Part shown: positions 5,327-62,413 of the stretch, one piece after another
Numbering within the stretch: the first letter of the stretch is position 1
Layout of the letters: every line of letters starts with the position of its first letter
From: an uncultured Thermodesulfobacteriota bacterium
Lineage (GTDB): Bacteria > Desulfobacterota > DSWW01
Assembly: GCA_964479535.1 (NCBI GenBank)
Contig: CAYZMM010000004.1
Coordinates: 70,459-134,458 of the forward strand
Direction: 5' to 3'
Length of the DNA: 64,000 bases
Made by a program: the position numbers and the translations under genes
Notes under the pieces: generated by a model
The model's database searches: none
Seen by the model: only the letters and a program-made list of their open reading frames with translations
Told to the model about the DNA's origin: nothing

Positions 5327-6175
5327 ATGAAGAAGCCGGTCAGTGCAATCGACCTCTACAAGGCAACGCCGAGGACCAACTGCAAAGAGTGCGGGTTTCC
5401 GACCTGCCTGGCATTCGCAACCTGTGTCATCGTGGAGAAGAAGCCCCTGGAAAGCTGCCCCTACCTGCCGGAGGGGGTGAGGGAGGAACTGGGCGGAAGG
5501 ATCCACGAACAGCAGACCGAAGGCGTGTACGTGAAGCGGGACCTCTACAAGATCACCGCGGATCACATCCGGGAGCGGATCGCGGACCATGACTTCTCCG
5601 CCATCGCCGAGGGCCTGGGCGCCGAGTACACCGAAGAAGACGGCCAACCCCATCTGCGCCTCTCCTACATGAACCGTGACTGCCGGGTCTCCAGGCAGGA
5701 GATCCGGATCGAAGGAAGCCCGGCCGGGAATCACTGGGACAACATCCTGCTCTACAACTACGTCCATTTCTCGGGCAGCGAACCGGTCCGCGGCGAATGG
5801 ATCCCCATCGACAACATACCGGGGCACATCCCGAAGAAGCCGGAGCTCGAGCACGGCTGCGAGCAGAAGATCGCGGCCCATTTCGAGGGGAAGCCGGAGA
5901 GGCTGGAAGGAGCTGCGGGTGCCCTCGGAGGGAGGCAGGCGGAGAACGAATCCGGCGCGGACGCGGCCCTGACCTTTCTCCCCCTGCCGAAGGTCCCCTT
6001 CTTCCTCCTCTTCTGGGACGCGGTTCCCGAGGAGGGGTTCGAGTCGAGGGCCAAGCTTCTCTTCGATCGGTCCGTTACGGACTATCTGGACATCGAGTCC
6101 CTGGTCTTCCTTGCCGAGAGATTCGCCGACACCCTGATCGAGGAAGACGAACGAACCTCTAACACGAGAGTCTGA
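5327..6175 (+). CDS. Fe-S cluster-binding protein with an N-terminal CFeSP-like 4Fe-4S motif (CxxCGFPTCLAFA...CP) and a DUF3786-like body
   Basis: The N-terminal Cys motif is identical in pattern to the N-terminus of the corrinoid iron-sulfur protein large subunit. Confidence 0.5.
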   Translation: MKKPVSAIDLYKATPRTNCKECGFPTCLAFATCVIVEKKPLESCPYLPEGVREELGGRIHEQQTEGVYVKRDLYKITADHIRERIADHDFSAIAEGLGAEYTEEDGQPHLRLSYMNRDCRVSRQEIRIEGSPAGNHWDNILLYNYVHFSGSEPVRGEWIPIDNIPGHIPKKPELEHGCEQKIAAHFEGKPERLEGAAGALGGRQAENESGADAALTFLPLPKVPFFLLFWDAVPEEGFESRAKLLFDRSVTDYLDIESLVFLAERFADTLIEEDERTSNTRV

Positions 6176-6179
6176 CACC

Positions 6180-7937
6180 ATGGAATCGACGAATACGAAA
6201 CTGCTGTCCGGAAACGAGGCGATCGCATGGGGGGCCTATGATTACGGCGTCAAGGTGGCTTCGGCCTATCCGGGCACGCCCAGCACCGAAATCCTCGAAA
6301 ACATCGCCCGCTTCGACGACGTGTACGCGGAATGGGCCCCCAACGAGAAGGTCGCCCTGGAGGTGGCCATCGGAGCCTGTCTAGGGGGCGTACGAACCCT
6401 GGCCAGCATGAAGCACGTGGGCCTGAACGTGGCGGCGGACCCCTTCTTCACCGCCTCCTACATCGGCGTCAACGGCGGCCTCGTGATCATCAGCGCGGAC
6501 GACCCGGGCATGCACAGCTCCCAGAACGAGCAGGACAACCGCCACTACGCTCTGGCCGCCAAGGTGCCCATGCTGGAGCCTGCGGATTCCCAGGAAGCGT
6601 ACGAATTCATCGGAGAGGCCCTCGAGATCAGCGAGAAGTACGACACGCCCGTGCTCTTCCGGGTCACCACCAGGATCTCCCATTCGAAAGGCGTGGTCCG
6701 GAGAAGGGCGAACCGGGTGCAACACCTCAGAGAGCCGGGCTTCGTCAAGGACCCGCCCAAGTATGTGATGGTACCCAATTTCGCCCGCCAGAGGCACGAT
6801 GTGGTGGAGCAGCGTGTCGTCCGGCTCCAAGAGCTTTCGGAAACGACCCCGCTCAACCGAATCGAGTGGGGCCGCCGGGAAGTGGGCATCATCACCAGCA
6901 GCGTAGCGTACCAGTATGCCAGGGAAGCCCGCCCCCGGGCCTCCTTCCTGAAGCTGGGTCTGAGCTATCCCCTGCCCGAGAGCCGGGTGAGGGAATTCGC
7001 CGAGGGCGTGAACAAGGTCTTCGTGGTGGAGGAACTGGATCCCTATCTGGAAGACCAGATCAGGGCCCTCGGGATCCCGGCCATCGGAAAGGAGCGCTTC
7101 CCGATCTGCGGCGAGCTCTCGCCCGAGATCGTGAAACAGGGCATGAGCGGAAGGAGGCGGAAGAAAGTCCCCGCTGCCGCAGCGATCCCGCCGAGGCCTC
7201 CCGCCCTCTGCCCCGGATGCCCTCACTCGGCCACCTTCTACACGATCAAGAAGCTCAAGCTGAACGTGATGGGCGACATCGGGTGTTACACGCTGAGCGT
7301 GGCCCCTCCCCTGGAAACGATGGACTCCACGCTCTGCATGGGGGCGAGCATCGGCATGGCCCACGGCATGGACAAGGCCCTCGGTGCGGACCCTGATTCG
7401 CGCTGCGTTGCCGTCCTCGGGGACAGCACGTTTCTGCACAGCGGCATCGCCCCGCTCCTGAACATCGCCTACAACCGGGGGAACTCGACCACGGTCATCC
7501 TGGACAACCGTACCACGGCCATGACCGGTTTCCAGGAGCACGCGGCCACCGGCAAGACCCTTCAGGGAGAGGAAGCCCCCGAGGTCGATTTCGAGGGCCT
7601 GGGCAAGGCGCTCGGGATCGAGTCGGTCCGTACGGTCGACCCGTACGAGATGAAGGGCCTCGAACGGGCCCTGAAAGAGGAGGTGGAGGCGCCCCGCTCC
7701 TCCCTGATCATCGCCCGGAGGGACTGCCTCCTCAAGAAGCGAGGCGAGCGGAAGACGCCCAAGACCGTGGCCCCGGAAAAATGCGTGGGATGCAACATGT
7801 GCCTGCTCACGGGGTGCCCGGCCCTCAGCCAGACAGCGCACGGAAAGGCGCAGATCGACAGCGTCCTCTGCAACGGATGCCCGATCTGTGAACAGATATG
7901 CAAGCTGGACGCGATCCACGACCTCTCGTACGACTAG
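6180..7937 (+). CDS. iorA: indolepyruvate ferredoxin oxidoreductase, alpha subunit (TPP-binding, two C-terminal 4Fe-4S ferredoxin motifs)
   Basis: 585 aa. The N-terminus is a 2-oxoacid:ferredoxin oxidoreductase with a TPP-binding fold. The C-terminus carries CxxCxxCxxxCP twice. Confidence 0.85.
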   Translation: MESTNTKLLSGNEAIAWGAYDYGVKVASAYPGTPSTEILENIARFDDVYAEWAPNEKVALEVAIGACLGGVRTLASMKHVGLNVAADPFFTASYIGVNGGLVIISADDPGMHSSQNEQDNRHYALAAKVPMLEPADSQEAYEFIGEALEISEKYDTPVLFRVTTRISHSKGVVRRRANRVQHLREPGFVKDPPKYVMVPNFARQRHDVVEQRVVRLQELSETTPLNRIEWGRREVGIITSSVAYQYAREARPRASFLKLGLSYPLPESRVREFAEGVNKVFVVEELDPYLEDQIRALGIPAIGKERFPICGELSPEIVKQGMSGRRRKKVPAAAAIPPRPPALCPGCPHSATFYTIKKLKLNVMGDIGCYTLSVAPPLETMDSTLCMGASIGMAHGMDKALGADPDSRCVAVLGDSTFLHSGIAPLLNIAYNRGNSTTVILDNRTTAMTGFQEHAATGKTLQGEEAPEVDFEGLGKALGIESVRTVDPYEMKGLERALKEEVEAPRSSLIIARRDCLLKKRGERKTPKTVAPEKCVGCNMCLLTGCPALSQTAHGKAQIDSVLCNGCPICEQICKLDAIHDLSYD

Positions 7938-7950
7938 GAGACTCCGAGCA

Positions 7951-8523
7951 TTGAAGAACCACGACATCTTTCTCGCCGGCGTTGGCGGACAAGGCATCCT
8001 ACTGGCAGGAGAGATCCTCTGCCTGGTGTTCATGGAGGCGGGGCTGGACGTGAAGAAGAGTGAAGTCCACGGCATGGCGCAACGGGGCGGGTCGGTCACC
8101 AGCCATGTCCGGTGCGGCCGCAAGGTCTTCTCCCCTCTGATTCCGAAAGGCCAGGCGGACATCCTCATGGGATTCGAGGCCCTCGAGGCCCTTCGGTGGG
8201 CCGATTTTCTGAAAGAGGACGGGGTCCTCCTGGTCAACCGGCAGAAGATCAACCCGACCACGGTCACCTCGGGCCGCATGGATTACCCGAGCCGCATCTA
8301 CGATCTCCTGAAGAAGAAGCGGCCCACCACCCGGATCGTCGACGGCCTGAAGCTCGCCCGAAAGGCGGGCGATGTTCGCACCGTGAACAGCGTGCTCGTG
8401 GGGGCCATCTCCCGGGAGCTGGACTTCCCGGAAGAGATGTGGACGAAGGCGATCTCCCAGAGGCTTCCGGAGAAGTTCGTGCCCATGAACCTGCACGCCT
8501 TCGAACTCGGCAGGGGTCGTTGA
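7951..8523 (+). CDS. iorB: indolepyruvate oxidoreductase, beta subunit
   Basis: A TTG start at 7951 lies just after the iorA stop. The GVGGQGILLAG motif is typical of OFOR gamma/IorB subunits. The protein is 190 aa. Confidence 0.8.
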   Translation: MKNHDIFLAGVGGQGILLAGEILCLVFMEAGLDVKKSEVHGMAQRGGSVTSHVRCGRKVFSPLIPKGQADILMGFEALEALRWADFLKEDGVLLVNRQKINPTTVTSGRMDYPSRIYDLLKKKRPTTRIVDGLKLARKAGDVRTVNSVLVGAISRELDFPEEMWTKAISQRLPEKFVPMNLHAFELGRGR

Positions 8524-11813: not shown

Positions 11814-12017
11814 ATGAGCACAGCCAAGGATTTCCGTGGCCTCATCCAGTTCGCCATCTGTGAAGAGAAGAAGGCGCAGGAGATGTACAGAGAGCTGGCC
11901 GAACAGGCCGGCGACGACTACGCAAAGGCCATTCTGGAAGGACTCCGGGAACAGGAGTTCAAGCACGAGGAGAAGCTCCAGGCCCTCCTCGACTCGATTG
12001 ACCCATCCAGGGCCTGA
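11814..12017 (+). CDS. small ferritin/rubrerythrin-like helical protein (67 aa)
   Basis: A compact ORF with an EEKKAQEMY...EQEFKHEE pattern. Confidence 0.3.
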   Translation: MSTAKDFRGLIQFAICEEKKAQEMYRELAEQAGDDYAKAILEGLREQEFKHEEKLQALLDSIDPSRA

Positions 12018-12092: not shown

Positions 12093-12740
12093 ATGCCGAA
12101 CACAGAAGACCGCCGCGACCCCTGTGAACGAGTGAAGAGGGCCATGCAAGCTGTCGGCAGCGACCTGCGTGAATCGATGAAGCAGATCCTCGAGGCCCTG
12201 GAACAGCGGAACGGAGCCGAGGCCGGGGAGATCCCCACCCGGCTCGAGGACGTTCGTGAAAAGGAGGACACGCTGAAGGAGCTCTGCCTTCAGATCCTCG
12301 GGGAAGCGAGTGGAAGCACCCCCGAACTCCGATGGACGGGCTGCGCACACAACATCCTGACCCTGATGTCCAAGGTCTCCAGGGAGATCGGAATCCTTGT
12401 TCAACAGATAGGCAGGATCCACCAGGGGCCTGAACTGCCGATCGGTGAAGACCTGCCCGACATGGCCAGACTGGCCGCCTGGATGCTCGACCAGAGCATC
12501 CGGACCGCCCTCGACCCCGACGCAGAGAGCGCACGCAGGGTGATGGAGGAGGACTCTTCCCTGGACCAGCGCAAGGAGGATTTCGCAAGGCGCGCGATCC
12601 TTCTCGTCAACGAGTATCCGGAGAGCTCGCAGCCCGTGGTTCCCTACGTCCTCGTATCCCGCCACCTGGAGAGAATCGGGGACCACGCCAGCCACATCGC
12701 CGAAGAGGTAGCGTACTACCTCGAGGACGCCGCTGCATAG
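12093..12740 (+). CDS. PhoU-domain phosphate-uptake regulator homolog
   Basis: The C-terminal RIGDHASHIAEEVAYY motif is diagnostic of PhoU, and two PhoU repeats are present. Confidence 0.75.
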   Translation: MPNTEDRRDPCERVKRAMQAVGSDLRESMKQILEALEQRNGAEAGEIPTRLEDVREKEDTLKELCLQILGEASGSTPELRWTGCAHNILTLMSKVSREIGILVQQIGRIHQGPELPIGEDLPDMARLAAWMLDQSIRTALDPDAESARRVMEEDSSLDQRKEDFARRAILLVNEYPESSQPVVPYVLVSRHLERIGDHASHIAEEVAYYLEDAAA

Positions 12741-12777: not shown

Positions 12778-13467
12778 TCATGCGAGCAGGGCCTGGAGGG
12801 CGTCGGCTGCGAGGGAGACGGCGATGCCGATCATGAGCATGCCGGAGAGCAGATCCGAGGTCTGCCGGTAGCGGCGGACGAATCCGGAGGCGCCCGTGCC
12901 GAGCAGGAACAGGCCGGGCACGGTTCCCAGGCCGAAACAGAGAAGCAGAAGGCCCCCCTCGAGGAACCCGCCGCAGGCCAGTGCCCGGGCAAAGCCTGCA
13001 TAGGAAAGCCCGCAGGGCAGAAGCCCCATCATCAGGCCGAACAGGAAGACCGATGTCGGATTCCCCCTTCCGGTGACGCCGTCCCTCACCCGGCGGAAGC
13101 CGGGAATCCTGGACGGAGACGCAACGGCCATCTGGTCCGGCTCTACGAGAATTCCAAGGCGAAAGAGCCCGAGGAAGAGAAGCAGGGCCGAGGCCACCAG
13201 GGAGAAGGCGACCTGGACCCGCGCGATCCAGATCATGGGATCCCCCCCGGCCAACCCGGCCAGTGCGGACAGCACCACGCCCGCCCCCCCCATGACCGCG
13301 CCCACGGCCGCGTACGTCGTGATCCGGCCCAGATGGTAGAAGACGTGCGCCGAGATCCTGCCGGCCTGCGCGGGAATCGCCAGCACAAGGGGCCCGCACA
13401 TCCCGATGCAGTGGCCGGTGCCCAGAAACCCGAGAAGGAAGAGGGCATAGAGATCGGCTTCGCTCAT
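12778..13467 (-). CDS. DsbD_2 / TauE-SafE-family (UreH-like) membrane protein with HCxxMCGP and LPCG motifs
   Basis: 230 aa and six TM segments. A GHCIGMCGP motif lies in TM1 and a second Cys motif in TM4. The start is placed at 13467 (MSEADLY). Confidence 0.6.
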   Translation of the reverse strand: MSEADLYALFLLGFLGTGHCIGMCGPLVLAIPAQAGRISAHVFYHLGRITTYAAVGAVMGGAGVVLSALAGLAGGDPMIWIARVQVAFSLVASALLLFLGLFRLGILVEPDQMAVASPSRIPGFRRVRDGVTGRGNPTSVFLFGLMMGLLPCGLSYAGFARALACGGFLEGGLLLLCFGLGTVPGLFLLGTGASGFVRRYRQTSDLLSGMLMIGIAVSLAADALQALLA

Positions 13468-13606
13468 GGGCTTCCAGCATACCCGCGATCTTTCGGTTTT
13501 CACAAGCCCTTCGATCCGGTATGATGTCGACCGCACGGCATGAATTCCTCCCGGTATCCGCTGCCGCCGCTTTCCGCGCTCAACCCGATTCGATGAAAGG
13601 AAGCCT

Positions 13607-14182
13607 ATGCCGATTCGTTCCCCTCGTTCCCGCATCCTTCCCGTGATCTTCCTGTTGATTCTGTTCCCCGCCGGATGCCAGAAGACCGAAAGGGCCGACA
13701 AGATCGATCCCGGAAGGGGCCCAACCCCCGCCCTGCGGGGGATCGATGCAGAAGGCACACTTCAGGTGAGCGAGGGCGACCGTTGCCCTGTGTGCGCCAT
13801 GCAGGTGAAGAACCACCCGAAGTTCGCTTGCGGCATCGAACTGAGCCACGGCCGGACCTTCTACTTCTGCGGCACCGGCTGCATGATCCGGTCCTGGCTC
13901 CATCCGGAGCACTTCCTGGGCGTCGAGAAGAGCGCTCTCCGCCGCTGTGTGGTCCAGGACTATTTTGACGGACGGCACGTGGACGGCCTCGCGGTGACGT
14001 GGGTGGCCGGCTCCGACGTGGTCGGACCGATGGGGCCGGCCCTCGTCCCGGTGAAGGACCCGAGCGCGCTCGAGGCCTTCCTGAAGCGCCACGGCGGCAA
14101 GACCACCTTCCGCCTGGCAGATCTGGACGACCGGAAATGGGAAGAGATCACAGGCAGGAAGGCGGTCCCCCGGGACCCGTGA
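13607..14182 (+). CDS. nosL: NosL-family copper-binding lipoprotein
   Basis: A signal peptide with a lipobox (FPAGC) precedes the CPVCAM...FCGTGC motifs typical of NosL. Confidence 0.65.
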   Translation: MPIRSPRSRILPVIFLLILFPAGCQKTERADKIDPGRGPTPALRGIDAEGTLQVSEGDRCPVCAMQVKNHPKFACGIELSHGRTFYFCGTGCMIRSWLHPEHFLGVEKSALRRCVVQDYFDGRHVDGLAVTWVAGSDVVGPMGPALVPVKDPSALEAFLKRHGGKTTFRLADLDDRKWEEITGRKAVPRDP

Positions 14183-14192
14183 CGGAAGAAAG

Positions 14193-14525
14193 ATGAGCCA
14201 CAGAAAGCACCCCGACGATCGACTGGGGCTCGCCAGGAACCTGCTGCTCGCCTCCTGGCTCGCAACGGCCTCGGCGCTGGGCCTCATGGTTCTCGACGCC
14301 TCCCTGCGATCTTCCCCCGGGGAGGCGCCGCTGCACGGGCTGGCCGAAGGCCTGTCGCTTTCGAACCTGTCGGTCGTGCCGGCCGGCCGGCCCCTTCGGC
14401 ATCCGGAGACCCTTCACCCTGCAATCGATCTTCGCTTCTCTCCCCTGCTGCCGAAGGCAGACACCGCCCCGGCCGGCCTGCTGCTTCGCCGAGCCGGTTC
14501 GCCGGCGCACGGGTACGCCCCATGA
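14193..14525 (+). CDS. hypothetical small protein with one TM helix, translationally coupled (ATGA overlap) to the downstream permease
   Basis: The only support is the gap-filling position and the stop/start overlap at 14522-14525. Confidence 0.3.
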   Translation: MSHRKHPDDRLGLARNLLLASWLATASALGLMVLDASLRSSPGEAPLHGLAEGLSLSNLSVVPAGRPLRHPETLHPAIDLRFSPLLPKADTAPAGLLLRRAGSPAHGYAP

Positions 14526-15682
14526 GGAAGCCCTTTCCTTCCACCATGCTCGTCTGGTCGGTTCGGGAAGCGATGCGCCGACCCGGAGAAACCCTGCTGC
14601 TGGCCGCGGCCCTGTTCGCCCTCGTCGCATGGATCGGTACGGTTCTTCTGCTGACCCACGCCCTGGAGAACACCGCAGCCTCCATCCTTGCGAAGGGCCC
14701 TTCCCTGGTGGTGCGGCGCATCTCCCCGGGTGGGTGGGCTCCCATCCCTGCGAGAACGTCGGCCGACATCGCCCGGGCCCTTCCCGGCGTCACGCACGCC
14801 AGGCCCAGGATCTGGGGCCTCGTCGCGAGCCCGAGCGGTCCCTTGACCGTTGTGGCGGCGGACGAGGAGACGCGGATGGGGGGAGAGGCTGCCGCCGTCT
14901 CGGCCCCGGCAAGAGGCGAAGCGGTTCTGGGTCCCGGCGCAGCCCCGGAAACGAACGGACCGTCCTTGACCCTTCGAGGCGCGCGGACCATGACGTTCAA
15001 GGTGGCGGGCAGGCTCCCGCCCGCATCCGGCCTCCTGGCACACGATATCGTCGTCCTCTGTGCGGAAGACGCCCGCCGACTGCTCGGCCTTCCCGAGGGT
15101 CACGCAAGCGACCTGGCCCTTCGCGTGTTCCACGAAGAGGAAGAAGAGGCGATCCTGCCCGATCTTTCCACGGCCTTCCCCTGGCCGGTCCGGATCGCCA
15201 CCCGCTCGGAGACGGTCGGCCTGTACGCAGGGGGGACCGCGCGCAGGGGAGGAATCGCCCTGGTGCTCACGGTCCCGGCGATCCTGGCCGCTGTGCTCCT
15301 CGTAGCCGGGTCGGCCCGGGACCGCATCGGCCGGCAGCGGGAGGTGGGGCTGCTCAAGGCCATGGGCTGGACCACCGGGGACCTGGTCCGCCTGCATCTG
15401 CTTCGTTCGGCAGCGGTGGGACTTCCCGCAACGGCCCTCGGAATGCTCTTCGCCTATGGGCTCGTCCTCTGGCCCGGCGTGCGCTGGCCCGGGGCCCTTC
15501 TCTTCGGATGGCAGGGACCGGCCCCGCTCCTGATCCTGACCCCGGCGGGCGCGTTCCTGACCCTGCTCGAGGTCGGGGCCCTGGTCTTCGTTCCGTGGCT
15601 GGCGGCGAACCTCTGGGCCGCCGCAAAAGGGGCATCCGCAGATCCCCAGGACCTGATCCAGGGAGGCGAGTTGCTCGCATGA
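14522..15682 (+). CDS. ABC transporter permease, FtsX/MacB-like (4-TM)
   Basis: An N-terminal TM segment is followed by a periplasmic domain and three C-terminal TM segments. Confidence 0.7.
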   Translation: MRKPFPSTMLVWSVREAMRRPGETLLLAAALFALVAWIGTVLLLTHALENTAASILAKGPSLVVRRISPGGWAPIPARTSADIARALPGVTHARPRIWGLVASPSGPLTVVAADEETRMGGEAAAVSAPARGEAVLGPGAAPETNGPSLTLRGARTMTFKVAGRLPPASGLLAHDIVVLCAEDARRLLGLPEGHASDLALRVFHEEEEEAILPDLSTAFPWPVRIATRSETVGLYAGGTARRGGIALVLTVPAILAAVLLVAGSARDRIGRQREVGLLKAMGWTTGDLVRLHLLRSAAVGLPATALGMLFAYGLVLWPGVRWPGALLFGWQGPAPLLILTPAGAFLTLLEVGALVFVPWLAANLWAAAKGASADPQDLIQGGELLA

Positions 15683-16365
15683 AGGATGCCGGAATCGAAT
15701 GCCGCGAGGTCACCTTTGCGCCCCGGGACCGGCCCGAGGGCAACCGGCCGATCCTGGACGGGGTGAATGCGAAGTTCGAACCGGCCCGGCCCGCCCTGAT
15801 CACGGGCCCCATGGGGGCAGGCAAGACCACCCTGCTCCACGTCCTTGCCGGCCTGCTGAGACCCACCCGGGGCGAGGTGCTCGCAGGGGGCCGGCCCGTC
15901 TCCCGCTGGACGGCCGCCCACCGCGATCTGTGGCGACGGGAAGTGGGGATCGTGTTTCAGGCCTCCAGCCTGTGGCCGGAGCTGACGGCCCTCGAGAACG
16001 TCCTCCTGCCCGTGATCCCCCGGGGCCGACGAACGGCAGCGATCCGTGCACAGGCCCTCGAGGCCCTGAAGGCGGTCGGGGTTTCCGACCTGGCCGGCCG
16101 GAGCGCACGCCTGCTTTCGGGAGGAGAGCGTCAGCGGGTGGCCGTTGCAAGAGCCCTTGTCTCGCGGCCCGCCTTTCTCTTCGTCGATGAACCCACGGCG
16201 CATCAGGACGACCACGGTGTCCGCCACGTTCTCGACGCGGTCTCCTCCGCCACCGCACGCGGCGCTCTGCTGGTGGTCGCTTCCCACGATCCCCGGGTGG
16301 CGGAAGACCACCGGCTCACGGATCGCTGGCACTTGAAGGCCGGACGGCTGGAGCGGATCCGATGA
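15679..16365 (+). CDS. ABC transporter ATP-binding protein
   Basis: It carries Walker A GPMGAGKTT, an LSGGERQRVAVARAL signature and a Walker B FVDEPT motif. The start at 15679 overlaps the permease stop. The long N-terminal extension of ORF 14629 is rejected as spurious. Confidence 0.85.
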   Translation: MKDAGIECREVTFAPRDRPEGNRPILDGVNAKFEPARPALITGPMGAGKTTLLHVLAGLLRPTRGEVLAGGRPVSRWTAAHRDLWRREVGIVFQASSLWPELTALENVLLPVIPRGRRTAAIRAQALEALKAVGVSDLAGRSARLLSGGERQRVAVARALVSRPAFLFVDEPTAHQDDHGVRHVLDAVSSATARGALLVVASHDPRVAEDHRLTDRWHLKAGRLERIR

Positions 16366-17393
16366 TCTGGCATCCACTGCTCCTCTCCGTGCTGACCCTG
16401 GACGTCCTCGCGCTCTTCTTCCTCCTCGCCGGACTGCTCTCGGCCCTGCAGATCGCCGCCCGCTGGTCGCCCGCGTCGGTGGAGAAAGAACAACTCGCTC
16501 TCGAAAGGAGAGCCGAGAGCGCTTCCATCCAGGGCCGCACCTGCGCCGTCCTTCTTCTCACCTCCACCCTGATCCTCATCATCGCAATCAGCGGGGTCCT
16601 GCCGGATCTCGTCCCCGGGGCCATGTGCGGAACAGGGGTGCTTCAGGCCACGCAGGGCGCAGGGGGGCGGGCACTCGCCCTGCGGGCACTCGCCCTGGGC
16701 CTGGTCGCCGCATGGCACCTCGTGGACCGGCTCAACCGGGCACGGCCCGGATCCCCCCTCGCTCTCACCGCATCCCGGGCCCTCCTGCTCGCCGGCCCGG
16801 TGGTGTTCCTGGCGGTGTACGACACGTTCCGGGCCGTCCTCCGGCTGGACGTGCACCGCCCCGTGGACTGCTGTTCGGTGGTCTACGATCAGATCCGACC
16901 CGCGGGTGAGGCAGTGGGAACATTCGGTCTGCCGGAGGCGTACGGGGTGTGGGGGCTCGCTCTGGGGGGAATCGTGATCCTGTTTCTGGGCGTGCGCCTC
17001 CGGCGCTCCCGCCGGCAGCAGGAACCCCGGAGAACAGCGCCCCTCGCTCTCGTCACCTTGTGCTGGGTTCCTTTGGCCGCAAGCGCGCTCGTCCGATCCC
17101 TTGCCGCGTATCACTACGGCGTGCTGCAGCACCGATGTCCCTGGTGTCTCTTCCTCCCGGAACACAAGCTGGTCGGCTACCTGCTGTTCGGCGCCCTGAC
17201 CCTGACCGCCGTGGAAGCAGGCGCCGCCTTCCTCTGCTCGAAGATCGCCGCCACCCTTCCCGCACTCGAACCGGACACCCTGAAACGGTCCCGTGCAGCC
17301 GGGCTGCGCATCACCGCAGCAACCGCCCTCTTCCTCGCCCTGTCAGGCCTGCCTCCGCTCCTGTGGCGCCTTCGGTTCGGCGTGTGGATGTGA
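16362..17393 (+). CDS. polytopic membrane protein (about 8 TM) with CC and C-P-W-C motifs; possible membrane thiol-disulfide oxidoreductase
   Basis: The start overlaps the ATPase stop. It has conserved-looking Cys pairs (DCCSVVYD, HRCPWC). Confidence 0.45.
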   Translation: MIWHPLLLSVLTLDVLALFFLLAGLLSALQIAARWSPASVEKEQLALERRAESASIQGRTCAVLLLTSTLILIIAISGVLPDLVPGAMCGTGVLQATQGAGGRALALRALALGLVAAWHLVDRLNRARPGSPLALTASRALLLAGPVVFLAVYDTFRAVLRLDVHRPVDCCSVVYDQIRPAGEAVGTFGLPEAYGVWGLALGGIVILFLGVRLRRSRRQQEPRRTAPLALVTLCWVPLAASALVRSLAAYHYGVLQHRCPWCLFLPEHKLVGYLLFGALTLTAVEAGAAFLCSKIAATLPALEPDTLKRSRAAGLRITAATALFLALSGLPPLLWRLRFGVWM

Positions 17394-18572: not shown

Positions 18573-19212
18573 TTACTTGCCCTCGCCGATGTTCTCGTAG
18601 ATTTCTTTGGTTAGCGCCGTGAATTCCGACTCGCCGGGGAGAAGCACGTAGAGGGGATCGCGTATCCTTTCTCTATCAAAGCCTTCCCTCTTCAACGGCC
18701 CCTTTATGACTTTCATCGTGCCGGTCGTTGGCAGTTCCGACGAAATCCTCAGGAACTTGGGCACTGCAAAATCTGCAAGGTTGTCCCTTAGAATCGCGGT
18801 GAATCCACCCAGATCGTTTCTTGAACGCCTTCCATATTTCGGGGCGAAGGCCGTTGCCGACGATGGCTTCCACAGGGTTGGCAGCGTCATCCGGCTTCTC
18901 GGGTTGGTTCATGAGGTATTGGCACATCTCCCCGATGTAACCGAACTTCCTGGCGTGGAATTTCCTTATGTCGCTCCAGAACCGGGAAGCACTGAACTTC
19001 CTTCTTATCGCTATGGCTGCCCCCCTGTACATCACCGGCGCCCAGGATACGCCTAATGCATGGTTATGATAGAACGGCAGAGGAACGTAGAGCGTATCGT
19101 TCGGCTGCAAATCCAGCAGCTCGGAGAAGGCGTAGCCACCCGACAGTACAGCGGCGTGAACCCTGATCTGACTTGGGCCGCTCAGGGACCAGAGCAGAAA
19201 CACTGCATCTTC
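18573..19212 (-). pseudogene. fatty-acyl-CoA synthetase (FadD/FATP-like AMP-binding enzyme): 3' two-thirds only, and frameshifted
   Basis: Two overlapping ORFs encode the AMP-binding middle and C-terminal motifs (YVPLPFYHNHALG; PTTGTMKVIKGPLKREG). The whole N-terminal third is absent and the break abuts cyclase copy 1. Confidence 0.65.
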
Positions 19213-19289
19213 ACCTTTTTTTGGACATCTACCGTATGTCGTGCGGCATCCCCCTTTCGGTCGTAATTGCGACCAATGCCTGACGGGGT

Positions 19290-22121
19290 TTACACCAGCT
19301 CCTCGAGAAGGGCCTTCGCCTCCTTCAGGTCGCGGGCCTCTTGCTTGCGGCCCTGCTGCTGCCACAGGCGGGCGAGGCCCGTCGCCGCACGAAGCTCATA
19401 GGATTTCGCCCTCTGGCGCCGCGCTACCTCGAGCGCATCGCGGAAGGACGCCTCCGCCCCTGCCGGGTCGGCAGCGGTACGAGCGAGGAGCAGCTCGGCC
19501 TTCGTGCGGTGCAACTCCGCCTCCGCATAGCGTTCGCCGGTCTTGGTCGCGAATTCCAATCCCTCCGCTACGACGGCGAGGCCTTCCTCCACTTGCCCTG
19601 CCTTCCCGTGTGCCACGGCCAGAGTAGCAAGAAACCACGAGAATGCGGCCAACGCGCCCCTAGCCCGCAGACCCTCGAGAATGGAGCGCATTCCCGTGAT
19701 TCCTTTCTCCAGCTCTCTCCGCTCTGTAAGTGCCGCGAAGCGACACATGGTTCCGAATGCTAGCCAGTATGGAAAACCATGCTCTTCCGACAGAACGATC
19801 AGTGCTTCGGTCACCTTCAGGGACGCCTCCGAGTCTCGGCGCAGCAAGTGAACGATGCCAAGACCATTAAGGGCTGTTGCCTCACTGAAGGTATGAGACA
19901 GCTCCCGCGCCAGGGCGAGTGCCTCCCGGGCTCTTGTCAGGGCCTGTTCCGGATAGCCGAGCCAGAAAAGCGTCCAGCTCGAGTAGAACAGCGCAAGTAC
20001 GCCAACATTCGAAGAGGCCGAGAGGTAATCATGGCCCCGGTGTTTTTTGGGGTCGTAGAGGCCCAGCAGTTCTTCGAGATGTTCTCGGGCCTCGCAATGC
20101 TCCCCCCGCAAGAAGGATGTCGCGCCCATGGCGACCAGCGCGCAAAGGATTTGTCCCGGATCACCTGTCTGGCGGGCCACACGCAGCAGTTCCTCTGCTA
20201 GCAGGCGCGACTTGTCATGCTCAGCACGCATTTGTTGGCCCGCCCGCAGTCCATTCAAGGCTTCGAACAAATGAGAAGCATCCCCAAGGCGCCGAGCGAG
20301 ATCTCTGGCGCGCGCATACGCCTGCTCCGTCTCCACAGACGCGAAGCCCTCGGTCACGTGCAAGGCCTGGCCGAGTGTGCACTGCAGGACCAGATCCAGT
20401 TCGTCGCGCTCCCGGGTCTCGGGCAGAGTCTTCTGCTGTTCGAGAGCCTGCCTGAGGCGATCGATCGCCTCCCCGTAGGCCGAGCGCTCGATGGCCTGCT
20501 CTCCGGCCAGCCGGAGGTACTCGACCGCCTTCGGCGTGTTCGCGCTCCGGCCGTAGTGATGGGCCAGTTCCTCGTAGTGGGCGTCGAGTCCCTGAGGGTT
20601 GAGGGCCTCGATGGCCTGGCCGGTGCGCTCGTGCAGCACGCGCCGACGCTCCCTGAGAAGGGAGCCGTACGCCACCTCCTGCGTGAGGGCGTGCTTGAAG
20701 GTGTACTCCGGGTCCGGAAAGGCCGGCCGCTCGTAGATGAACTCCGCTACCTGCAGATGCGAGAGCCCGCGGGAGAGCTCCTCCAGGAAGAAGGGGTTTC
20801 CCTGGGTCTTGGAAAGGATGAGCCGGTCCAGGGCCTCCCGCTCTTCTCCCGCCCCTTCGCCCAGAAGGGCACCGAGCAGCTCCCTTGACTCCTCGGCTCC
20901 GAAAGGATCCAGCCTGAGCTGCGTGTAGCAGGTCCTGCTCCCCCAGCCGTGCCCGTACTCGGGCCGGTAGTTGACCAGCAAGAGGAGCCTCGCCGTGGCC
21001 ACACTGTCGACGAGCACGTCCAGGAAGGCCTGCGTCTCGGAGTCGATCCAGTGGAGATCCTCGAAGAGGAGAACACAGGGCTGGTTGAGGGTCTCCCGCA
21101 CCAGCACGCGTTTCACCGCCTCCAGGGCCCGCTGCCGCCGGATCTGCGGGTCCATCTGCTCGAGGGAGCCCGTCCTGTCTCCGATGCCGAGGAGGGTGAA
21201 GAGATACGGCAGGGTGTCCTCGAGCGTGCGGTCCAGGGCGAGCACGGTCCCGGTGACCTTCTCCCGCCTCCGGCGCTCGTCGTCTTCCACTCGGATTCGG
21301 AAATAGCCCTTCAGAAGCTCGAGCAACGGCAGGTAGGCGGATGCCTTGCCGTGGGAGACCGAGAAACCCTCGAGCACGCGGCAGCCGCTCCCGACGAGCC
21401 CCTTGAACTCGTGGAGCAGGCGCGACTTGCCCACACCCGCCTCGCCCAGCACCGCCAAAATCTGCCCACGTCCCGCTTGGGCTGCCTCCCACGCCCGCTC
21501 GAGCTCTCCCATCTCCCGCTCTCGGCCTACGAAGCGAACCAGCCCCCGCCTTGCCGAGACCTCCAGGGGGCTTCTCAGCGGACCCACGCCCTGCAACTCA
21601 TAGACACGCAGTGGCTCCGAGGTTCCGGCGATTTTGGACTCCCCCAGGTCCAGGAGTTGGAAAAAACCCTCCACGAGCCGCGCCGTGTGCTGGCTCAGGT
21701 AGGCGTGGCCCGGCTCTGCGAGCTGCTCGACTCGCTGCGCTAAACCCACCGTGTGCCGCTGAGCCGTGTAGTCCATGCGCAGGTCATCTCCGATCTTCCC
21801 GACCACCACCTCCCCGGAATTCAGGCCGAGACGGACCGAGAAGTTCAAGCTCCGATCCATGCGAAGCTCTTGCGCGTACTTCCTGAGTTGCTCGCAGAGA
21901 GCCAGCGCCGCGCAGCAAGCCCTCTGGGCGTGATCCTCGTGCGCGATCGGCGCACCGAACAGCGCCATGATGCCGTCGCCCGTGTACTGGTTCACCGTTC
22001 CCTCGAAGCGGTGCACGCCGTCTGCGAGATTCTGGAAGAACCGGTCGAGGATGCGGTGCCACTCCTCCGGGTCGACCTGCTCGGCCAGCTCCATCGACCC
22101 CTTCACGTCGGCGAAGAGCAC
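19290..22121 (-). CDS. class III nucleotidyl cyclase (CHD) - AAA/STAND NTPase - TPR protein, paralog 1 (N-terminally truncated; no Zn-ribbon; GTG start)
   Basis: The FADVKGS...GDGIMALFG metal-binding Asps, Walker A GEAGVGKSRL and C-terminal TPR-like helices are all present. Homology to the other copies continues upstream of the only start codon. Confidence 0.8.
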   Translation of the reverse strand: MLFADVKGSMELAEQVDPEEWHRILDRFFQNLADGVHRFEGTVNQYTGDGIMALFGAPIAHEDHAQRACCAALALCEQLRKYAQELRMDRSLNFSVRLGLNSGEVVVGKIGDDLRMDYTAQRHTVGLAQRVEQLAEPGHAYLSQHTARLVEGFFQLLDLGESKIAGTSEPLRVYELQGVGPLRSPLEVSARRGLVRFVGREREMGELERAWEAAQAGRGQILAVLGEAGVGKSRLLHEFKGLVGSGCRVLEGFSVSHGKASAYLPLLELLKGYFRIRVEDDERRRREKVTGTVLALDRTLEDTLPYLFTLLGIGDRTGSLEQMDPQIRRQRALEAVKRVLVRETLNQPCVLLFEDLHWIDSETQAFLDVLVDSVATARLLLLVNYRPEYGHGWGSRTCYTQLRLDPFGAEESRELLGALLGEGAGEEREALDRLILSKTQGNPFFLEELSRGLSHLQVAEFIYERPAFPDPEYTFKHALTQEVAYGSLLRERRRVLHERTGQAIEALNPQGLDAHYEELAHHYGRSANTPKAVEYLRLAGEQAIERSAYGEAIDRLRQALEQQKTLPETRERDELDLVLQCTLGQALHVTEGFASVETEQAYARARDLARRLGDASHLFEALNGLRAGQQMRAEHDKSRLLAEELLRVARQTGDPGQILCALVAMGATSFLRGEHCEAREHLEELLGLYDPKKHRGHDYLSASSNVGVLALFYSSWTLFWLGYPEQALTRAREALALARELSHTFSEATALNGLGIVHLLRRDSEASLKVTEALIVLSEEHGFPYWLAFGTMCRFAALTERRELEKGITGMRSILEGLRARGALAAFSWFLATLAVAHGKAGQVEEGLAVVAEGLEFATKTGERYAEAELHRTKAELLLARTAADPAGAEASFRDALEVARRQRAKSYELRAATGLARLWQQQGRKQEARDLKEAKALLEELV

Positions 22122-23601: not shown

Positions 23602-26600
23602 TCATGCCAGCTCGTCGAGAAGGGCCTTCGCCTCCTTCAGGTCGCGGGTATCGAGGCCCTCGGTGAACCAGTCGTAGACAGGTGCGAGTAGATCGCGGGC
23701 CTCTTGCCTGCGGCCCTGCTTCCGCCACAGGCGGGCGAGGCCCGTCGCGGCACGAAGCTCATAGGATTTCGCGCTCTGGCGCCGCGCTACCTCGAGCGCA
23801 TCGCGGAAGGACGCCTCCGCCCCTTCCGGGTCGGCAGGCGTACGAGCGAGAACCAACTCGGCCTTTACGCGATGCAATTCCGCCTCGCCCCAGTGTTCGC
23901 CGGTCTTCCTCACGAATTCCAGTTCCTCCGCGGCGGCGGCAAGCCCTTCCTCCACTTGCCCTGCCTTCCTGTGTGCTCCGGCCAAGAGGGCAAGATACCA
24001 CGACGATCCCACCACTGCCCCCCTGGCCCGCATACCCTCGATAACAGAGCGCATTCCGGCGATTCCCTCCTGCAGATCGCCCTGCTCAGCGAGAGCCGCG
24101 CCGCGAAAGCCGGCTCCGAATGCCAGATACGAAGGAAACCCCTGCTCGCTCGATAGGGCGATCAGCGTTTCTGCTGTCTCAAGGGAGGCCTTCGACTCGC
24201 GACGAAACATGTGGACGATACCGAGACCGAGGAGGGCAGTTCCCTCACTGAAGGCATGGGAGAGTTCCCGGGCAAGGGCGAGGCCCTGCCGGGCTCTTGT
24301 CAGGGCCTGATCCGCGTACCCGAACGGGAACAGCGTCCAGCTGAAGAAAAGGAGCCCCCATATGCCAACATTGGCTGTGGGCTTGAGGTATTCGTGGCCC
24401 CGGTGCTTCTTGGGGTCGTAGAGGCGGAGGAGCTCTTCGAGATGTTCCCGGGCCTCGTAAAACTCTCCCCGATAGAAGGATGCCACGCCCATGCCGAAGA
24501 GCGCACGCAGGAGTTGTCCCGGGTCGTGTGACTCGCGGGCCACACCGAGCAGTTCCTCGGCGAGCAATTGCGACTTGTCATGCTCAGCACGAGCGATTTG
24601 GACCGTCCGCAGTCCGTTCAACGCCGCAAACAACTGAGAAGCGTCCCCCAGGCACCGGGCGAGATCTCGGGCGCGCACATACGCCTGCTCCGCTTCCGCG
24701 GACGCCAAGCCCTCGATCACGAGCAAAGCCTGGCCGAGTGCGGACTGCACGACCAGCTCCAGCTCGTCCCGCTCCCGGGTGTCGGACAGGGTCTTCAGGA
24801 GTTCGAGAGCCTGCCTGAGCCGGGCGATAGCCTCGCCGTACGCCGAGCGCGCCACCGCCTGCTCACCGGCCAGCCGCAGGTACTCGACAGCCTTGGGCGT
24901 GTTCGCGCTCCGGCCGTAGTGATGGGCCAGTTCCTCGTAATGGGCGTCGAGCGCCTGAGGGTTGAGAGCCTCGATGGCCTGCCCGGTGCGCTCGTGCAGC
25001 ACGCCCCGGCGCTCCCGGAGTAGCGACCCGTACGCCACTTCCTACGTGAGTGCGTGCTTGAACGTGTACTCCGGGTCCGGAAAGGCCGGCCGCTCGTAGA
25101 TGAACTCCGCTGCCTGCAGATGCGAGAGCTCTCTGGAGAGATACTCCTCGGCCTCTCCGGCCACGGCGCGGATGAGGCCCAGGGAGAACTCCTTGCCGAT
25201 CACGGCCAGGGTCTGCAGCAGGTCCTTCTCCCGGGAAGGCAGCCGGTCGATGCGTGCCCCGATCACCCCCTGAACCGTGGCCGGGATGTGGAGTTCTGTC
25301 GGGGATCTCTTCAGACGGTAATGACCCGGCTCCCCTGCGAGCACCCCTTCCTCGACGAGCGTCTGCACCAGCTCCTCCAGGAAGAAGGGGTTTCCCTGGG
25401 TCTTGGAAAGGATGAGCCGGTCCAGGGCCTCCCGCTCTTCTCCCGCCCCTTCGCCCAGAAGGGCACCGAGCAGCTCCCTTGACTCCTCGGCTCCGAAAGG
25501 ATCCAGCCTGAGCTGCGTGTAGCAGGTCCTGCTCCCCCAGCCGTGCCCGTACTCGGGCCGGTAGTTGACCAGCAAGAGGAGCCTCGCCGTGGCCACACTG
25601 TCGACGAGCACGTCCAGGAAGGCCTGCGTCTCGGAGTCGATCCAGTGGAGATCCTCGAAGAGGAGAACACAGGGCTGGTTGAGGGTCTCCCGCACCAGCA
25701 CGCGTTTCACCGCCTCCAGGGCCCGCTGCCGCCGGATCTGCGGGTCCATCTGCTCGAGGGAGCCCGTCCTGTCTCCGATGCCGAGGAGGGTGAAGAGATA
25801 CGGCAGGGTGTCCTCGAGCGTGCGGTCCAGGGCGAGCACGGTCCCGGTGACCTTCTCCTGCCTCCGGCGCTCGTCGTCTTCGATCCGGATTCGGAAATAG
25901 CCCTTCAGAAGTTCGAGCAACGGCAGGTAGGCGTATGCCTTGCCGTGGGAGACCGAGAAGCCCTCGAGCACGCGGCAGCCGCTCGTAAGCTGCTCTTTGA
26001 ACTCGTAGAGGAGGCGCGACTTGCCCACACCCGCCTCGCCCAGCACTGCCACGATCTGCCCGCGGCCCGCCCGGGCTGCCTCCCAGGCGCGCTCAAGCTC
26101 TCCCATCTCCCGCCGCCGGCCCACGAAGCGCACAAGCCCTCGCCTCGCGGCTACCTCCATTTTCGTTCGCAGGGGGCCCACGCCCTGCAGCTCGAAGACA
26201 CGCAGCGGTTCCTGCACGCCCTGCACGTTGAAGCGGCCCAGATCGCTGAGGCGGAGCGCCGCGTAGCACGCCCGCTGCGCATGGTCCTCGTGGGCAATGG
26301 GCGCACCGAACAGCGCCATGATCCCGTCGCCCGTGTACTGGTTCACGGTTCCTTCGAAGCGGTGGACCCCATCGGCCAGGATCTGGAAGAAACGGTCGAG
26401 GATGCGGTGCCACTCCTCCGGGTCCACCTGCTCGGCCAGCTCCATGGACCCCTTCACGTCGGCGAAGAGGACGGTCACCTGCTTCCGCTCCCCATCCAGT
26501 GCGGACCCGGACTGCAGAATCCTGTCGGCCAGGTGTTTGGGCGTGTAAGACTGAGGCTGCAAGTGGTCTATCGTGGCGGCTTCAACAGGCTTTCTCAGGT

Positions 26601-26742
26601 CGTGGCCGCATCTATCACAGAACCTGCTTTCCGGTGTATTCAGGTTTGCGCATTGAGGGCAGGAGAGTTCCAGTTTGCTCCCGCACGCCTTGCAGAAGGT
26701 GGCCCCCTCTCTGTTTTCGGCGTGGCAAGTGGGGCACTTCAT
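23602..26742 (-). pseudogene. Zn-ribbon - cyclase - AAA/STAND - TPR paralog 2, disrupted by an in-frame TAG at 25039-25041 and an in-frame deletion of about 243 bp in the cyclase domain
   Basis: The two ORFs 25042..26742 and 23602..25038 share a frame and are separated only by TAG, where copy 1 has CAG. The cyclase domain lacks roughly 81 aa present in copies 1, 3 and 4. Confidence 0.75.
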
Positions 26743-30700: not shown

Positions 30701-31116
30701 TCGCCGGTGTACTGGTTCACCGTTCCCTCGAAACGGTGCACGCCGTCCGCAAGGATCTGGAAGAACCGGTCGAGGATCCGGTGCCACTCCTCCGGGTCGG
30801 TCTGTTCAGCCATTTCCATCGAGCCCTTTACGTCTGCGAAGAGGACGGTGACCACTTTCCGTTCGCCCTCGATCGAGCTGCGGGTCGTGAGGATCTTTTC
30901 GGCAAGGTAGTTCGGGGTGTAGGACCGAGGTTGGGAGTAGTCGACGGCGGGCGTTGCTACGGGCTTGGTCAGGTCATGGGCGCAATCGCCGCAGAACTTA
31001 TCGTTCGGAAGAACTTCAGCCCCGCACTGAGGGCAGGCGAGGACGAGTCTCGCCGCACATGCCCGGCAGAACTTCTTGTTATCCGGGTTGTCCGTCTGGC
31101 ACTGAGGGCATTTCAT
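27733..31116 (-). CDS. double Zn-ribbon - class III nucleotidyl cyclase (CHD) - AAA/STAND NTPase - TPR protein, paralog 3 (intact, 1127 aa)
   Basis: Two CPxC...CxxC ribbons are followed by a full CHD domain, a P-loop NTPase and long TPR-like C-terminal helices. No interruptions are seen. Confidence 0.85.
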   Translation of the reverse strand: MKCPQCQTDNPDNKKFCRACAARLVLACPQCGAEVLPNDKFCGDCAHDLTKPVATPAVDYSQPRSYTPNYLAEKILTTRSSIEGERKVVTVLFADVKGSMEMAEQTDPEEWHRILDRFFQILADGVHRFEGTVNQYTGDGVMALFGAPIAHEDHAQRACYAALRLSEGLQRYAAELKREKGLRFSVRMGLNSGEVVVGKIGDDLRMDYTAQGQTVGLAARMEQLAEPGKAYLSEHTAKMVEGLCRLGDLGRFNVQGVQEPLRVFELQGVGPLRTKMEVAERRGLSRFVGRQREMEQLQRAWEAAQAGRGQIVAVLGEAGVGKSRLLYEFKGQLTSGCRVLEGLSVSHGKAYAYLPLLELLKGYFRIGLEDDERRRREKVTGTVLTLDRTLEDTLPYLFTLLGIGDLTGPLEQMDPQIRRQRTLEAVKRVLVRETLDQPCVLVFEDLHWIDSETQAFLYVLVDSVATARLLFLVNYRPEYGHGWGSRTCYTQLRLDPLGDVEARELLTALLGDEASADRTELERLIMAKTQGNPFFLEELVQTLVEEGVLAGEPGHYRLKRSPGELHIPATVQGVIGARIDRLPSREKDLLQTLAVIGKEFSLGLIRAVAGEAEEYLSRELSHLQAAEFIYERPAFPDPEYTFKHARTQEVAYGSMLRERRGAIHERVGQAIEKVYSETLDEHYQELAHHYGRSANTPKAAEYLRLAGEQAVARSAYGEAIDRLRQALELLKTLPETRERDELELSLQSALGQALDVTETFASVEAEQAYLRARDLAECLGNASQVFAALTGLRAGQQVRAEHDKARLLAEELLRVARESRDPGQLLRALHAMSGTSFYRGEFSEAREHLEEFLGLYDPKKHRGHDYLSASANVGVWGLFFFSWTLVSLGYPVQALKRALEGLALARELSDPFSESVALFCISRIYLERRDSKASLQTAEAVINLSSEHGFAYYLAFGAWLRLEALTEEGQLQEGIAGMRSVLQGMRARGAVLGSSWFLALLARAHRKAGQVEEGVALVAQGLEFVTKTDERMMEAELHRVKGELLLGHTPADQVGAEASFRDALEVARRQSAKSYELRAATGLARLWQQQGCKQKARELLAPVYHWFTEGFDTRDLKEAKALLEELT

Positions 31117-59870: not shown

Positions 59871-59897
59871 GGGGCCTCTCCTGCTCGTTGATCCGCC

Positions 59898-61128: not shown

Positions 61129-61168
61129 ATGGCACCTCTCCTCTTTCGAGGCTGTCCCGCCAGCCTCC

Positions 61169-62383: not shown

Positions 62384-62413
62384 CCTGTCGTATCCCCTTG
62401 CGGGTTTGCACCC

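Follow-up and report, generated by a model that had tools for sequence, protein, structure and literature searches.

A conserved gene module that places a NosL-family protein outside a nos operon, beside a DsbD_2 protein and an apparently undescribed membrane protein family, with a possible role in Cu(I) handling

What does a NosL protein do when no nos operon surrounds it? To our knowledge, no other member of the NosL family is well understood, and what is understood of NosL concerns its part in nitrous oxide (N2O) reductase assembly alone. The question is raised by a locus at positions 12,778 to 17,393 of a 64,000-nucleotide stretch of contig CAYZMM010000004.1 (assembly GCA_964479535.1, from an uncultured Thermodesulfobacteriota bacterium); we refer to this whole stretch as the window. 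Here a NosL-family gene shares an operon with a small open reading frame (ORF), an ATP-binding cassette (ABC) permease and ATPase, and an eight-helix membrane protein with conserved cysteines that we call Cys8TM, and a gene for a DsbD_2 protein is transcribed away from them. We find that these genes form a conserved module and favour, tentatively and with a little less than even confidence, the reading that it is a self-contained envelope module whose task would be to handle Cu(I) on the periplasmic side of the inner membrane; we think it less likely that the cargo is another thiophilic metal.

The DsbD_2 gene is divergent from a five-gene plus-strand operon that runs from NosL to Cys8TM (Table 1). 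Three 4-nucleotide ATGA start/stop overlaps join the small ORF to the permease, the permease to the ATPase and the ATPase to Cys8TM, and a gap of 10 nucleotides separates NosL from the small ORF. Five of the six products (the ATPase was left out of this look-up) are identical to gene products recorded for an NCBI contig, so the gene boundaries match an independent gene call; a DsbD_2 reading of 326 residues that reaches position 13758 is an upstream extension of the shorter gene listed in Table 1. A promoter scan of the divergent intergenic region found a sigma-70-like candidate ahead of the operon (TTTTCA-17 nt-TATGAT, 13497-13525, + strand), and a promoter-like core (GGTTTTCACAAGC...GGTATGATGTCG) is kept in two relatives, L004 and L006, that were compared with window positions 13448-13626. 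The same region gave no match in an Rfam scan and no clear operator palindrome, one weak palindrome being all that was seen.

A first-pass annotation of the window had read this locus as a divergent DsbD_2 protein with an HCxxMCGP motif, a NosL protein outside a nos operon, a MacB/FtsX-type ABC pair and a last protein with eight transmembrane (TM) helices and CC and CPWC motifs, with stop/start coupling across four genes as the sign of a single operon. The overlaps given above and the profile and fold searches given below agree with all of this. Its broader suggestion of copper or thiol handling also points to the right area. Neither of the two outcomes that it had named as refuting was seen: NosL matches its family profile and Cys8TM matches no characterised family.

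The genome-context comparison that the same annotation had proposed bears out the gene set. When one genome per species was scanned (185,579 species), the Cys8TM family was found in 167 species, nearly all of them Desulfobacterales and other Desulfobacterota, plus Myxococcota. We fetched the best 80 of these 167 loci for the locus analyses and counted components in the 58 species-level loci that have at least 4.3 kb of upstream DNA. The ABC ATPase and permease are present in 54 of the 58, NosL in 52, a divergent DsbD_2 in 51 and all four components together in 47. Gene order and orientation are constant across the complete loci, and the flanking genes vary from genome to genome; among the 80 loci, recurrent flank genes are limited to UbiE, UbiA and a PrkA/DUF444/SpoVR trio, a pattern that resembles clade synteny. 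Furthermore, the pairwise-distance matrices of the five proteins correlate with one another at r = 0.81-0.91 (50 loci), indicating that the gene set is inherited as a unit. The module is also carried by a cultured host, Desulfoferrobacter suflitae DRH4 (locus L005).

The NosL protein, judged by its profile match and its conserved ligands, is a genuine family member located outside a nos operon. It matches Pfam PF05573 (E 7.9e-19; 68.7 bits against a cut-off of 24), is similar to P. stutzeri NosL from the NosDFY-NosL complex (7OSF; E 3e-8 by phmmer) and also aligns to S. denitrificans NosL (SdNosL; 7OG7). In the SdNosL crystal structure, Cys59, Cys88 and Asp92 ligate Zn(II), Cys62 bridges both metals, and Met64 and Met145 ligate Cu(I); the Cu ligands Cys62, Met64 and Met145 are reported to be strictly conserved in NosL, and the Zn ligands differ among NosL proteins, with Asp or Glu at position 92 (PMC8457098). 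Residues C60, C63, M65, C88, C92 and M142 of the window protein map one-to-one onto Cys59, Cys62, Met64, Cys88, Asp92 and Met145 of SdNosL and, together with H162, are invariant among 59 orthologues. The equivalents of all three Cu(I) ligands (C63, M65 and M142) are present. At the Zn(II) site, C60 and C88 are present and position 92 is an invariant Cys that replaces Asp or Glu, the sole change in the metal site relative to SdNosL. NosL has also been reported to be structurally related to MerB (PMC10114901).

The family match and ligand conservation, and the NCBI name 'nitrous oxide reductase accessory protein NosL' given to two fusion proteins that we describe below, could be taken to mean that this NosL is a displaced part of N2O-reductase maturation that serves a nosZ elsewhere in the genome. 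We consider this the least probable explanation of the locus, and a highly improbable one. Neither the genes nosZ, nosD, nosF and nosY nor the domains of their products were found in the scanned window ORFs, the Pfam-annotated related loci or the recurrent flank families; the ABC partner has a predicted Type VII fold and not that of NosY; and the module is inherited as a unit of its own. The NosL of the window has a lipobox (FPAGC, Cys24) and is a predicted lipoprotein, as had been proposed. Among the 59 orthologues, a lipobox is present in 12, and the remaining ones that were read start with ordinary signal-peptide-like N-termini. Because most NosL orthologues have no lipobox, we rejected the idea that the ABC pair is a release system of the Lol kind, dedicated to NosL as a lipoprotein.

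The last gene of the operon encodes a member of what we regard, on profile and fold searches, as a previously undescribed membrane protein family. Its members are about 344 residues long, have eight long helices and the motif series PGAMCG...PVDCC...CxWCLFL, and are encoded beside DsbD_2, all of which fits the window protein. The AlphaFold2 model (predicted local distance difference test score, pLDDT, 88.7; predicted template modelling score, pTM, 0.85) has eight long and two short helices. Five cysteines are invariant: C89 in PGAMCG, C170 and C171 in PVDCC, and C259 and C262 in CPWCLFL. The mean number of Lys and Arg residues is 3.2 in the loop between helices 5 and 6 and 5.5 in that between helices 7 and 8, which marks these loops as cytoplasmic; from this distribution the three Cys-bearing loops are predicted to be periplasmic and the N-terminus to lie outside. 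Natural fusions of NosL to the N-terminus independently confirm that this end is on the periplasmic side, and the five invariant cysteines are thus predicted to lie on the same side of the membrane as NosL.

More than 452 Cys8TM homologues were found in a set of 5.8 billion proteins, all of them unnamed ('hypothetical protein'), and an exhaustive HMMER search gave 831 representative clusters at E <= 1e-3. There is no Pfam or NCBIfam family for the protein, the sub-threshold Pfam matches being DUF4381 (E 0.013) and VKOR (E 0.026), and a Foldseek comparison of the model with solved folds returned nothing at E <= 1e-3. The first-pass annotation had offered VKOR/DsbB as candidate families. We rejected this identification, as the Pfam VKOR score is 15.1 bits against a cut-off of 27.5 and two fold searches return neither family. 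Homology to CopD was likewise not detected: there is no match to Pfam PF05425, and hhalign against E. coli YebZ gives a probability of 0.1%, a weak test with a single-sequence target. Homology between Cys8TM and DsbD_2 through their common 'MCG' motif was also discarded (hhalign probability 0.3%), and a duplication of 4+4 helices is undetectable at the sequence level.

The divergent gene encodes a clear DsbD_2 protein (Pfam PF13386, E 2.8e-36; 125.7 bits against a cut-off of 24.9), whose conserved cysteines lie in TM1 and TM4. H19, C20, M23 and C24 of the GHCxxMCGP motif (GHCIGMCGP in the window), H41, H45 and C152 of an LPCG motif are invariant among 60 orthologues, and M212 is kept in 97% of them. 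This set of His, Cys and Met residues offers more potential metal ligands than a two-cysteine electron conduit would need. In gut Firmicutes, DsbD_2 proteins of the COG2836 type reportedly belong to the CsoR regulon, which responds to copper (PMC4938975). In 24 loci the gene directly downstream of DsbD_2 encodes a UbiE-type methyltransferase, and in 16 a UbiA prenyltransferase is encoded nearby (for example L050 3464-4285 and L061 2168-3115); these neighbours may be clade synteny or may hint at a link to quinones.

The DsbD_2 superfamily also carries reducing equivalents, and the main alternative is a thiol-disulfide relay. A CcdA-like DsbD_2 would carry cytoplasmic reducing equivalents to Cys8TM, itself a periplasm-facing acceptor or oxidoreductase that is possibly quinone-linked; the four cysteines of NosL, or another envelope protein, would be the substrate, maintained in reduced or oxidised form, and the ABC motor would assist the client. 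This fits the family membership of DsbD_2, the CxxC motif of Cys8TM and the UbiE and UbiA neighbours. However, neither the module nor its recurrent neighbours include a thioredoxin-like gene that could supply a thioredoxin-fold partner, the extra His and Met residues of DsbD_2 go beyond such a role, and Cys8TM fails the VKOR/DsbB tests. On balance we judge a redox relay unlikely. At a single locus (L087 770-1550), a thioredoxin and a rhodanese are encoded near the module.

Loci in which the module is incomplete indicate which of its parts belong together. In two Myxococcales genomes, a signal peptide and a NosL domain are fused to the N-terminus of Cys8TM (P0249 and P0387, which share 61% identity), and at both fusion loci a divergent DsbD_2 gene adjoins and the ABC genes are absent. 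The DNA of the L084 fusion is a single uninterrupted frame. Since NosL and Cys8TM are not adjacent in the standard module, the fusion is not explained by read-through between neighbouring genes, and it argues for a functional link between the two proteins. In a close relative of the window, the metagenome-assembled genome locus L006, Cys8TM directly follows DsbD_2 and the NosL and ABC genes are absent, while the flanks (PaaK, ACT, aminotransferase, rubrerythrin-like ORF, PhoU and DsbD_2) are 75-91% identical to those of the window. Because the conserved promoter core in L006 directly precedes Cys8TM, this locus suggests that the NosL-ABC block entered or left the interval between promoter and Cys8TM as a single cassette. 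L075 is similar to L006 in having DsbD_2 and Cys8TM alone, L069 and L070 have no NosL, and L015 and L040 have Cys8TM alone.

As the fusion loci, L006, L075 and the other variants drop NosL, the ABC genes or both, we assign DsbD_2 and Cys8TM as the core, with NosL as the usual periplasmic partner and the Type VII ABC pair and small protein as a frequent add-on. The module is thus not NosL-centred, as had first been thought; some genomes do without NosL, the ABC genes or both. Beside the stand-alone Cys8TM genes, a small DUF5666 protein is encoded immediately upstream in L040 (7693-7968) and a protein with FmdE, treble-clef zinc finger and MoCF_biosynth domains nearby in L015 (5167-6837).

The permease of the ABC pair is, by its modelled structure, a mechanotransducer of the Type VII (MacB/LolCE/FtsX) fold. 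It matches the Pfam FtsX family (PF02687, E 3.3e-6; 27.6 bits against a cut-off of 25.5), and the Pfam MacB_PCD domain was undetected in its sequence. A Foldseek search with the AlphaFold2 model (pLDDT 86.8) placed LolE and LolC best (4e-17), with MacB, HrtB, YbbP, BceB and FtsX also found, at values up to 1e-5. In the model, which has four TM helices, a periplasmic domain of some 190 residues separates TM1 from TM2. This domain contains no conserved Cys, His or Met, and the lack of conserved metal ligands fits a mechanical role. Characterised Type VII members, as review abstracts describe them, operate with a periplasmic partner.

The ATPase matches Pfam ABC_tran (E 1.3e-32) and has an intact Walker A (GPMGAGKT), signature (LSGGE) and Walker B (FVDEPT); its nearest NCBIfam models are FtsE and LolD, with all scores under the equivalog cut-offs. 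The small ORF encodes a protein with a cytoplasmic N-terminal DRL motif, one TM helix, a periplasmic tail (PSGRPxRxP...IDLR) and no cysteines, which has no match in Pfam or NCBIfam. In most loci the corresponding slot is occupied by a weakly conserved homologous single-pass ORF, and in about 13 loci it is missing and NosL and the permease abut or overlap.

The closeness of the permease fold to LolE and LolC, the name 'lipoprotein release permease' given to some homologues and the lipobox of the window NosL raise the possibility of an ordinary MacB- or Lol-type exporter, for lipoprotein release or for efflux of a peptide or toxin, with NosL as its cargo or a bystander and the Cys proteins as unrelated neighbours. 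Several observations make this very unlikely: Cys8TM and DsbD_2 are found together with the ABC genes and vary in step with them, a fusion joins NosL to Cys8TM at loci that lack ABC genes, the lipobox is found in just a minority of NosL orthologues, and a LolA-like/MacB-type cluster of its own is already encoded elsewhere in the window (57.8-63.2 kb).

How might these proteins work together on Cu(I)? A copper relay is suggested by the Cu ligands of NosL, the NosL-Cys8TM fusions, the periplasmic cysteines of Cys8TM, the His-, Cys- and Met-rich DsbD_2 and the ligand-free domain of the permease. We hypothesize that the NosL-type chaperone would hold one Cu(I) on its Cys and Met ligands, beside a Cys4 site probably filled by Zn, and would swap this Cu(I), by thiol/thioether ligand exchange, with a putative five-Cys cluster of Cys8TM in which nearby Met and His residues could join the five periplasm-facing cysteines. 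Cys8TM would pair with DsbD_2, whose membrane-embedded His, Cys and Met residues might form a path across the membrane. The Type VII ABC motor, made up of the permease, the ATPase and the small protein, would be added in most genomes and would move nothing through the bilayer; powered by ATP, it would do conformational work on the periplasmic side and so gate or force the hand-over to or from NosL, as NosFY does for NosD and NosL. The preferred direction would be outward, from the cytoplasm or membrane through DsbD_2 and Cys8TM to NosL and on to an acceptor or to disposal. We favour this direction because COG2836 proteins belong to a regulon induced by copper excess and because no Type VII ABC system is known to be an importer. 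Gene content, conservation, co-inheritance, the NosL ligands, the predicted topology, the fusions and the fold classes are what the analysis shows; the metal itself, the transfer steps, their direction and the role of ATP are what we infer.

Two loci give anecdotal pointers toward copper. In L036, a gene for a CopA-type Cu(I) P1B-ATPase (5745-8138) begins about 250 nucleotides after Cys8TM; it is the one CopA that a search for P1B-ATPase and HMA motifs found in 83 loci. In one metagenomic ORF, P0252 (L085 1807-3090), Cys8TM shares a reading frame with the last 100 residues of a CopA-like ATPase (match to solved CopA at E 3e-12), a join that may be a rearrangement or an assembly chimera.

Several points weigh against a copper relay. 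We found no cupro-enzyme, CopA, CsoR or CueR in the 64-kb window, and none of these is a recurrent neighbour in the 80 loci. The hosts are mostly strict anaerobes of sulfidic habitats, settings that offer little free copper and in which copper enzymes should be few. With Cys in place of Asp, the second NosL site is Cys4, and its metal preference may differ; the membership of DsbD_2 in a superfamily with redox functions leaves room for a role of that kind. Neither an HlyD/MFP (membrane-fusion protein; MacA) gene nor an outer-membrane-factor gene, as partner of an ABC pump, was found in the module or its recurrent flanks, and a true efflux route is not evident. The first-pass idea of an export or maturation system likewise stays an inference.

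The habitat and the altered NosL site also bear on another metal relay, a high-affinity uptake system for Ni, Co or Zn in sulfidic habitats. Here NosL would strip the metal from sulfide complexes, Cys8TM would receive it, a UreH-like DsbD_2 would import it and the ABC pair would power the extraction. 'UreH-like' was the label that the first-pass annotation had given to DsbD_2, and UreH of Bacillus sp. TB-90 has reportedly been proposed as a nickel permease. Further, the second site of NosL is all-Cys as opposed to Cys3Asp, which would shift its metal preference; the hosts are largely Desulfobacterales, which probably have a high demand for Ni and Co; and MerP-MerT is a precedent for import by a relay of Cys pairs. 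On the other hand, all three Cu(I) ligands of NosL are retained, NCBIfam gave no UreH or NicO match for the DsbD_2 protein, Ni or Co enzymes and regulators do not recur in the flanks, and no Type VII ABC system, in review abstracts or otherwise, is known to import. We therefore think that uptake of Ni, Co or Zn is improbable, and retain Cu(I) handling as the preferred, tentative explanation.

A bolder version of the Cu(I) relay is that Cys8TM founds a new class of membrane copper-relay proteins, which together with a DsbD_2-type carrier would move Cu(I) across the inner membrane and load NosL-type chaperones by a cascade of Cys ligand exchange, with a Type VII ABC motor coupled for the first time to a metallochaperone. 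We regard this as unlikely. If it were true, it would explain the copper source of NosL-type chaperones and bring to light a route of copper handling peculiar to anaerobic Desulfobacterota and Myxococcota.

The neighbourhood of the module in the window contains further features. A PhoU-domain gene (12093-12740, + strand) is convergent with DsbD_2 and adjoins an ORF for a 67-residue rubrerythrin/ferritin-like fragment (11814-12017, + strand); we considered both as module members and rejected them, their synteny being limited to the closest relatives, L004 and L006. The second Type VII ABC cluster lies at 57853-63226 on the - strand (Table 1). Four paralogous signalling genes or gene pairs, all on the - strand (19290-22121, 23602-26742, 27733-31116 and 35503-37104), encode adenylate/guanylate cyclase, AAA_16 and TPR domains, two of them with N-terminal double zinc ribbons, and form an unusual local expansion. 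At 18573-19365 (- strand), two ORFs in different frames resemble pieces of an acyl-CoA synthetase, one a 105-residue piece with no Pfam match; local GC falls to 0.58 there, and the region is a candidate frameshifted pseudogene. The window also encodes a membrane protein of the MMPL/RND type whose C-terminal domain binds cyclic nucleotides by annotation (31549-34296, + strand) and a GluR0-like protein in which an ion channel is joined to a solute-binding domain (51789-52877, + strand).

Table 1. Features of the module, of the second ABC cluster in the window and of the NosL-Cys8TM fusions. Positions are those of the window unless a locus is given.
Feature	Position	Strand	Length	Assignment
DsbD_2 (COG2836-type six-helix membrane protein)	12778-13467	-	229 aa	Pfam PF13386
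Divergent intergenic region with putative promoter	13468-13606		139 bp	promoter scan
NosL-family periplasmic metallochaperone	13607-14182	+	191 aa	Pfam PF05573
Small single-pass membrane protein	14193-14525	+	110 aa	no Pfam/NCBIfam family
FtsX-like ABC permease, predicted Type VII	14522-15682	+	386 aa	Pfam PF02687
ABC ATPase, FtsE/LolD/MacB type	15679-16365	+	228 aa	Pfam ABC_tran
Cys8TM (eight-helix Cys-motif membrane protein)	16362-17393	+	343 aa	unnamed family
Second cluster: LolA_like protein	62414-63226	-		LolA_like
Second cluster: permease	59898-61364	-		FtsX+MacB_PCD
Second cluster: ABC ATPase	59139-59870	-
Second cluster: ORF	57853-59142	-	429 aa	no Pfam match
Fusion P0249	L084 8001-9482		493 aa	NosL-Cys8TM
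Fusion P0387	L086		537 aa	NosL-Cys8TM

Full-text literature searches turned up no paper connecting NosL to FtsX, MacB or Type VII ABC systems, and none on the module or the Cys8TM family. According to the authors of the SdNosL structure, the occurrence of NosL homologues beyond nos clusters indicates a wider use of the chaperone (PMC8457098). The module supplies such a NosL with defined and conserved partners: the Cys8TM family, DsbD_2 and a predicted Type VII ABC motor. If the Cu(I) relay is correct, it would offer a testable copper-handling route for sulfate reducers and other anaerobes, bacteria in which Cu(I) readily harms periplasmic cytochromes and Fe-S enzymes.

Among known systems, three resemble the module by analogy only. 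NosL-NosDFY (P. stutzeri 7OSF-7OSJ and 7ZNQ; SdNosL 7OG7) has a homologous periplasmic chaperone with equal Cu(I) ligand positions and an ABC partner. NosFY acts as a periplasmic mechanotransducer and not as a transporter, and we propose by analogy that the same may hold for the ABC part of the module. In contrast to that system, the module has no NosD, NosY-type permease, NosF orthologue or nosZ, and its ABC pair has a predicted Type VII (LolC/MacB) fold. Its NosL has Cys for the Zn ligand Asp92, most of the orthologues lack a lipobox, and Cys8TM, DsbD_2 and the small single-pass protein are additional. A Cu(I) relay in the module would extend the idea of an ABC mechanotransducer working with a metallochaperone beyond NosDFY.

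CopC-CopD (YobA-YebZ) similarly combines a periplasmic copper binder with a polytopic protein of the inner membrane that has about eight helices. Both systems have natural fusions of the two partners, CopC and CopD being fused in B. subtilis YcnJ. However, we found no sequence relationship, and the chemistry of Cys8TM would be Cys-based whereas that of CopC-CopD is His/Met-based. In the mercuric ion uptake relay MerP-MerT (and MerC/MerF), a periplasmic Cys metal binder hands a soft metal by ligand exchange to Cys pairs of a membrane protein, including a vicinal CC. The folds and families differ, MerT having three helices and Cys8TM eight long ones, and the module has an ABC motor and no merA or merR context.

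Two further systems share components with the module. Like CcdA/DsbD and the COG2836 proteins, the divergent gene product belongs to PF13386 and has its cysteines in TM1 and TM4, but it lacks HMA and DUF2318 domains as well as a thioredoxin-like partner, carries extra invariant His and Met residues, and is paired with Cys8TM. The Type VII ABC systems (LolCDE-LolA, MacAB-TolC, FtsEX-EnvC, YbbAP-TesA and HrtBA) share the predicted permease fold, a separate FtsE/LolD-like ATPase and a dedicated periplasmic partner. The module differs from them in having no MacA or TolC and no detectable MacB_PCD domain, and in that its partner would be a metallochaperone, a kind of partner absent from the papers of the library searched; should the Cu(I) relay prove true, a metal-trafficking partner would join the short list of Type VII ABC functions.

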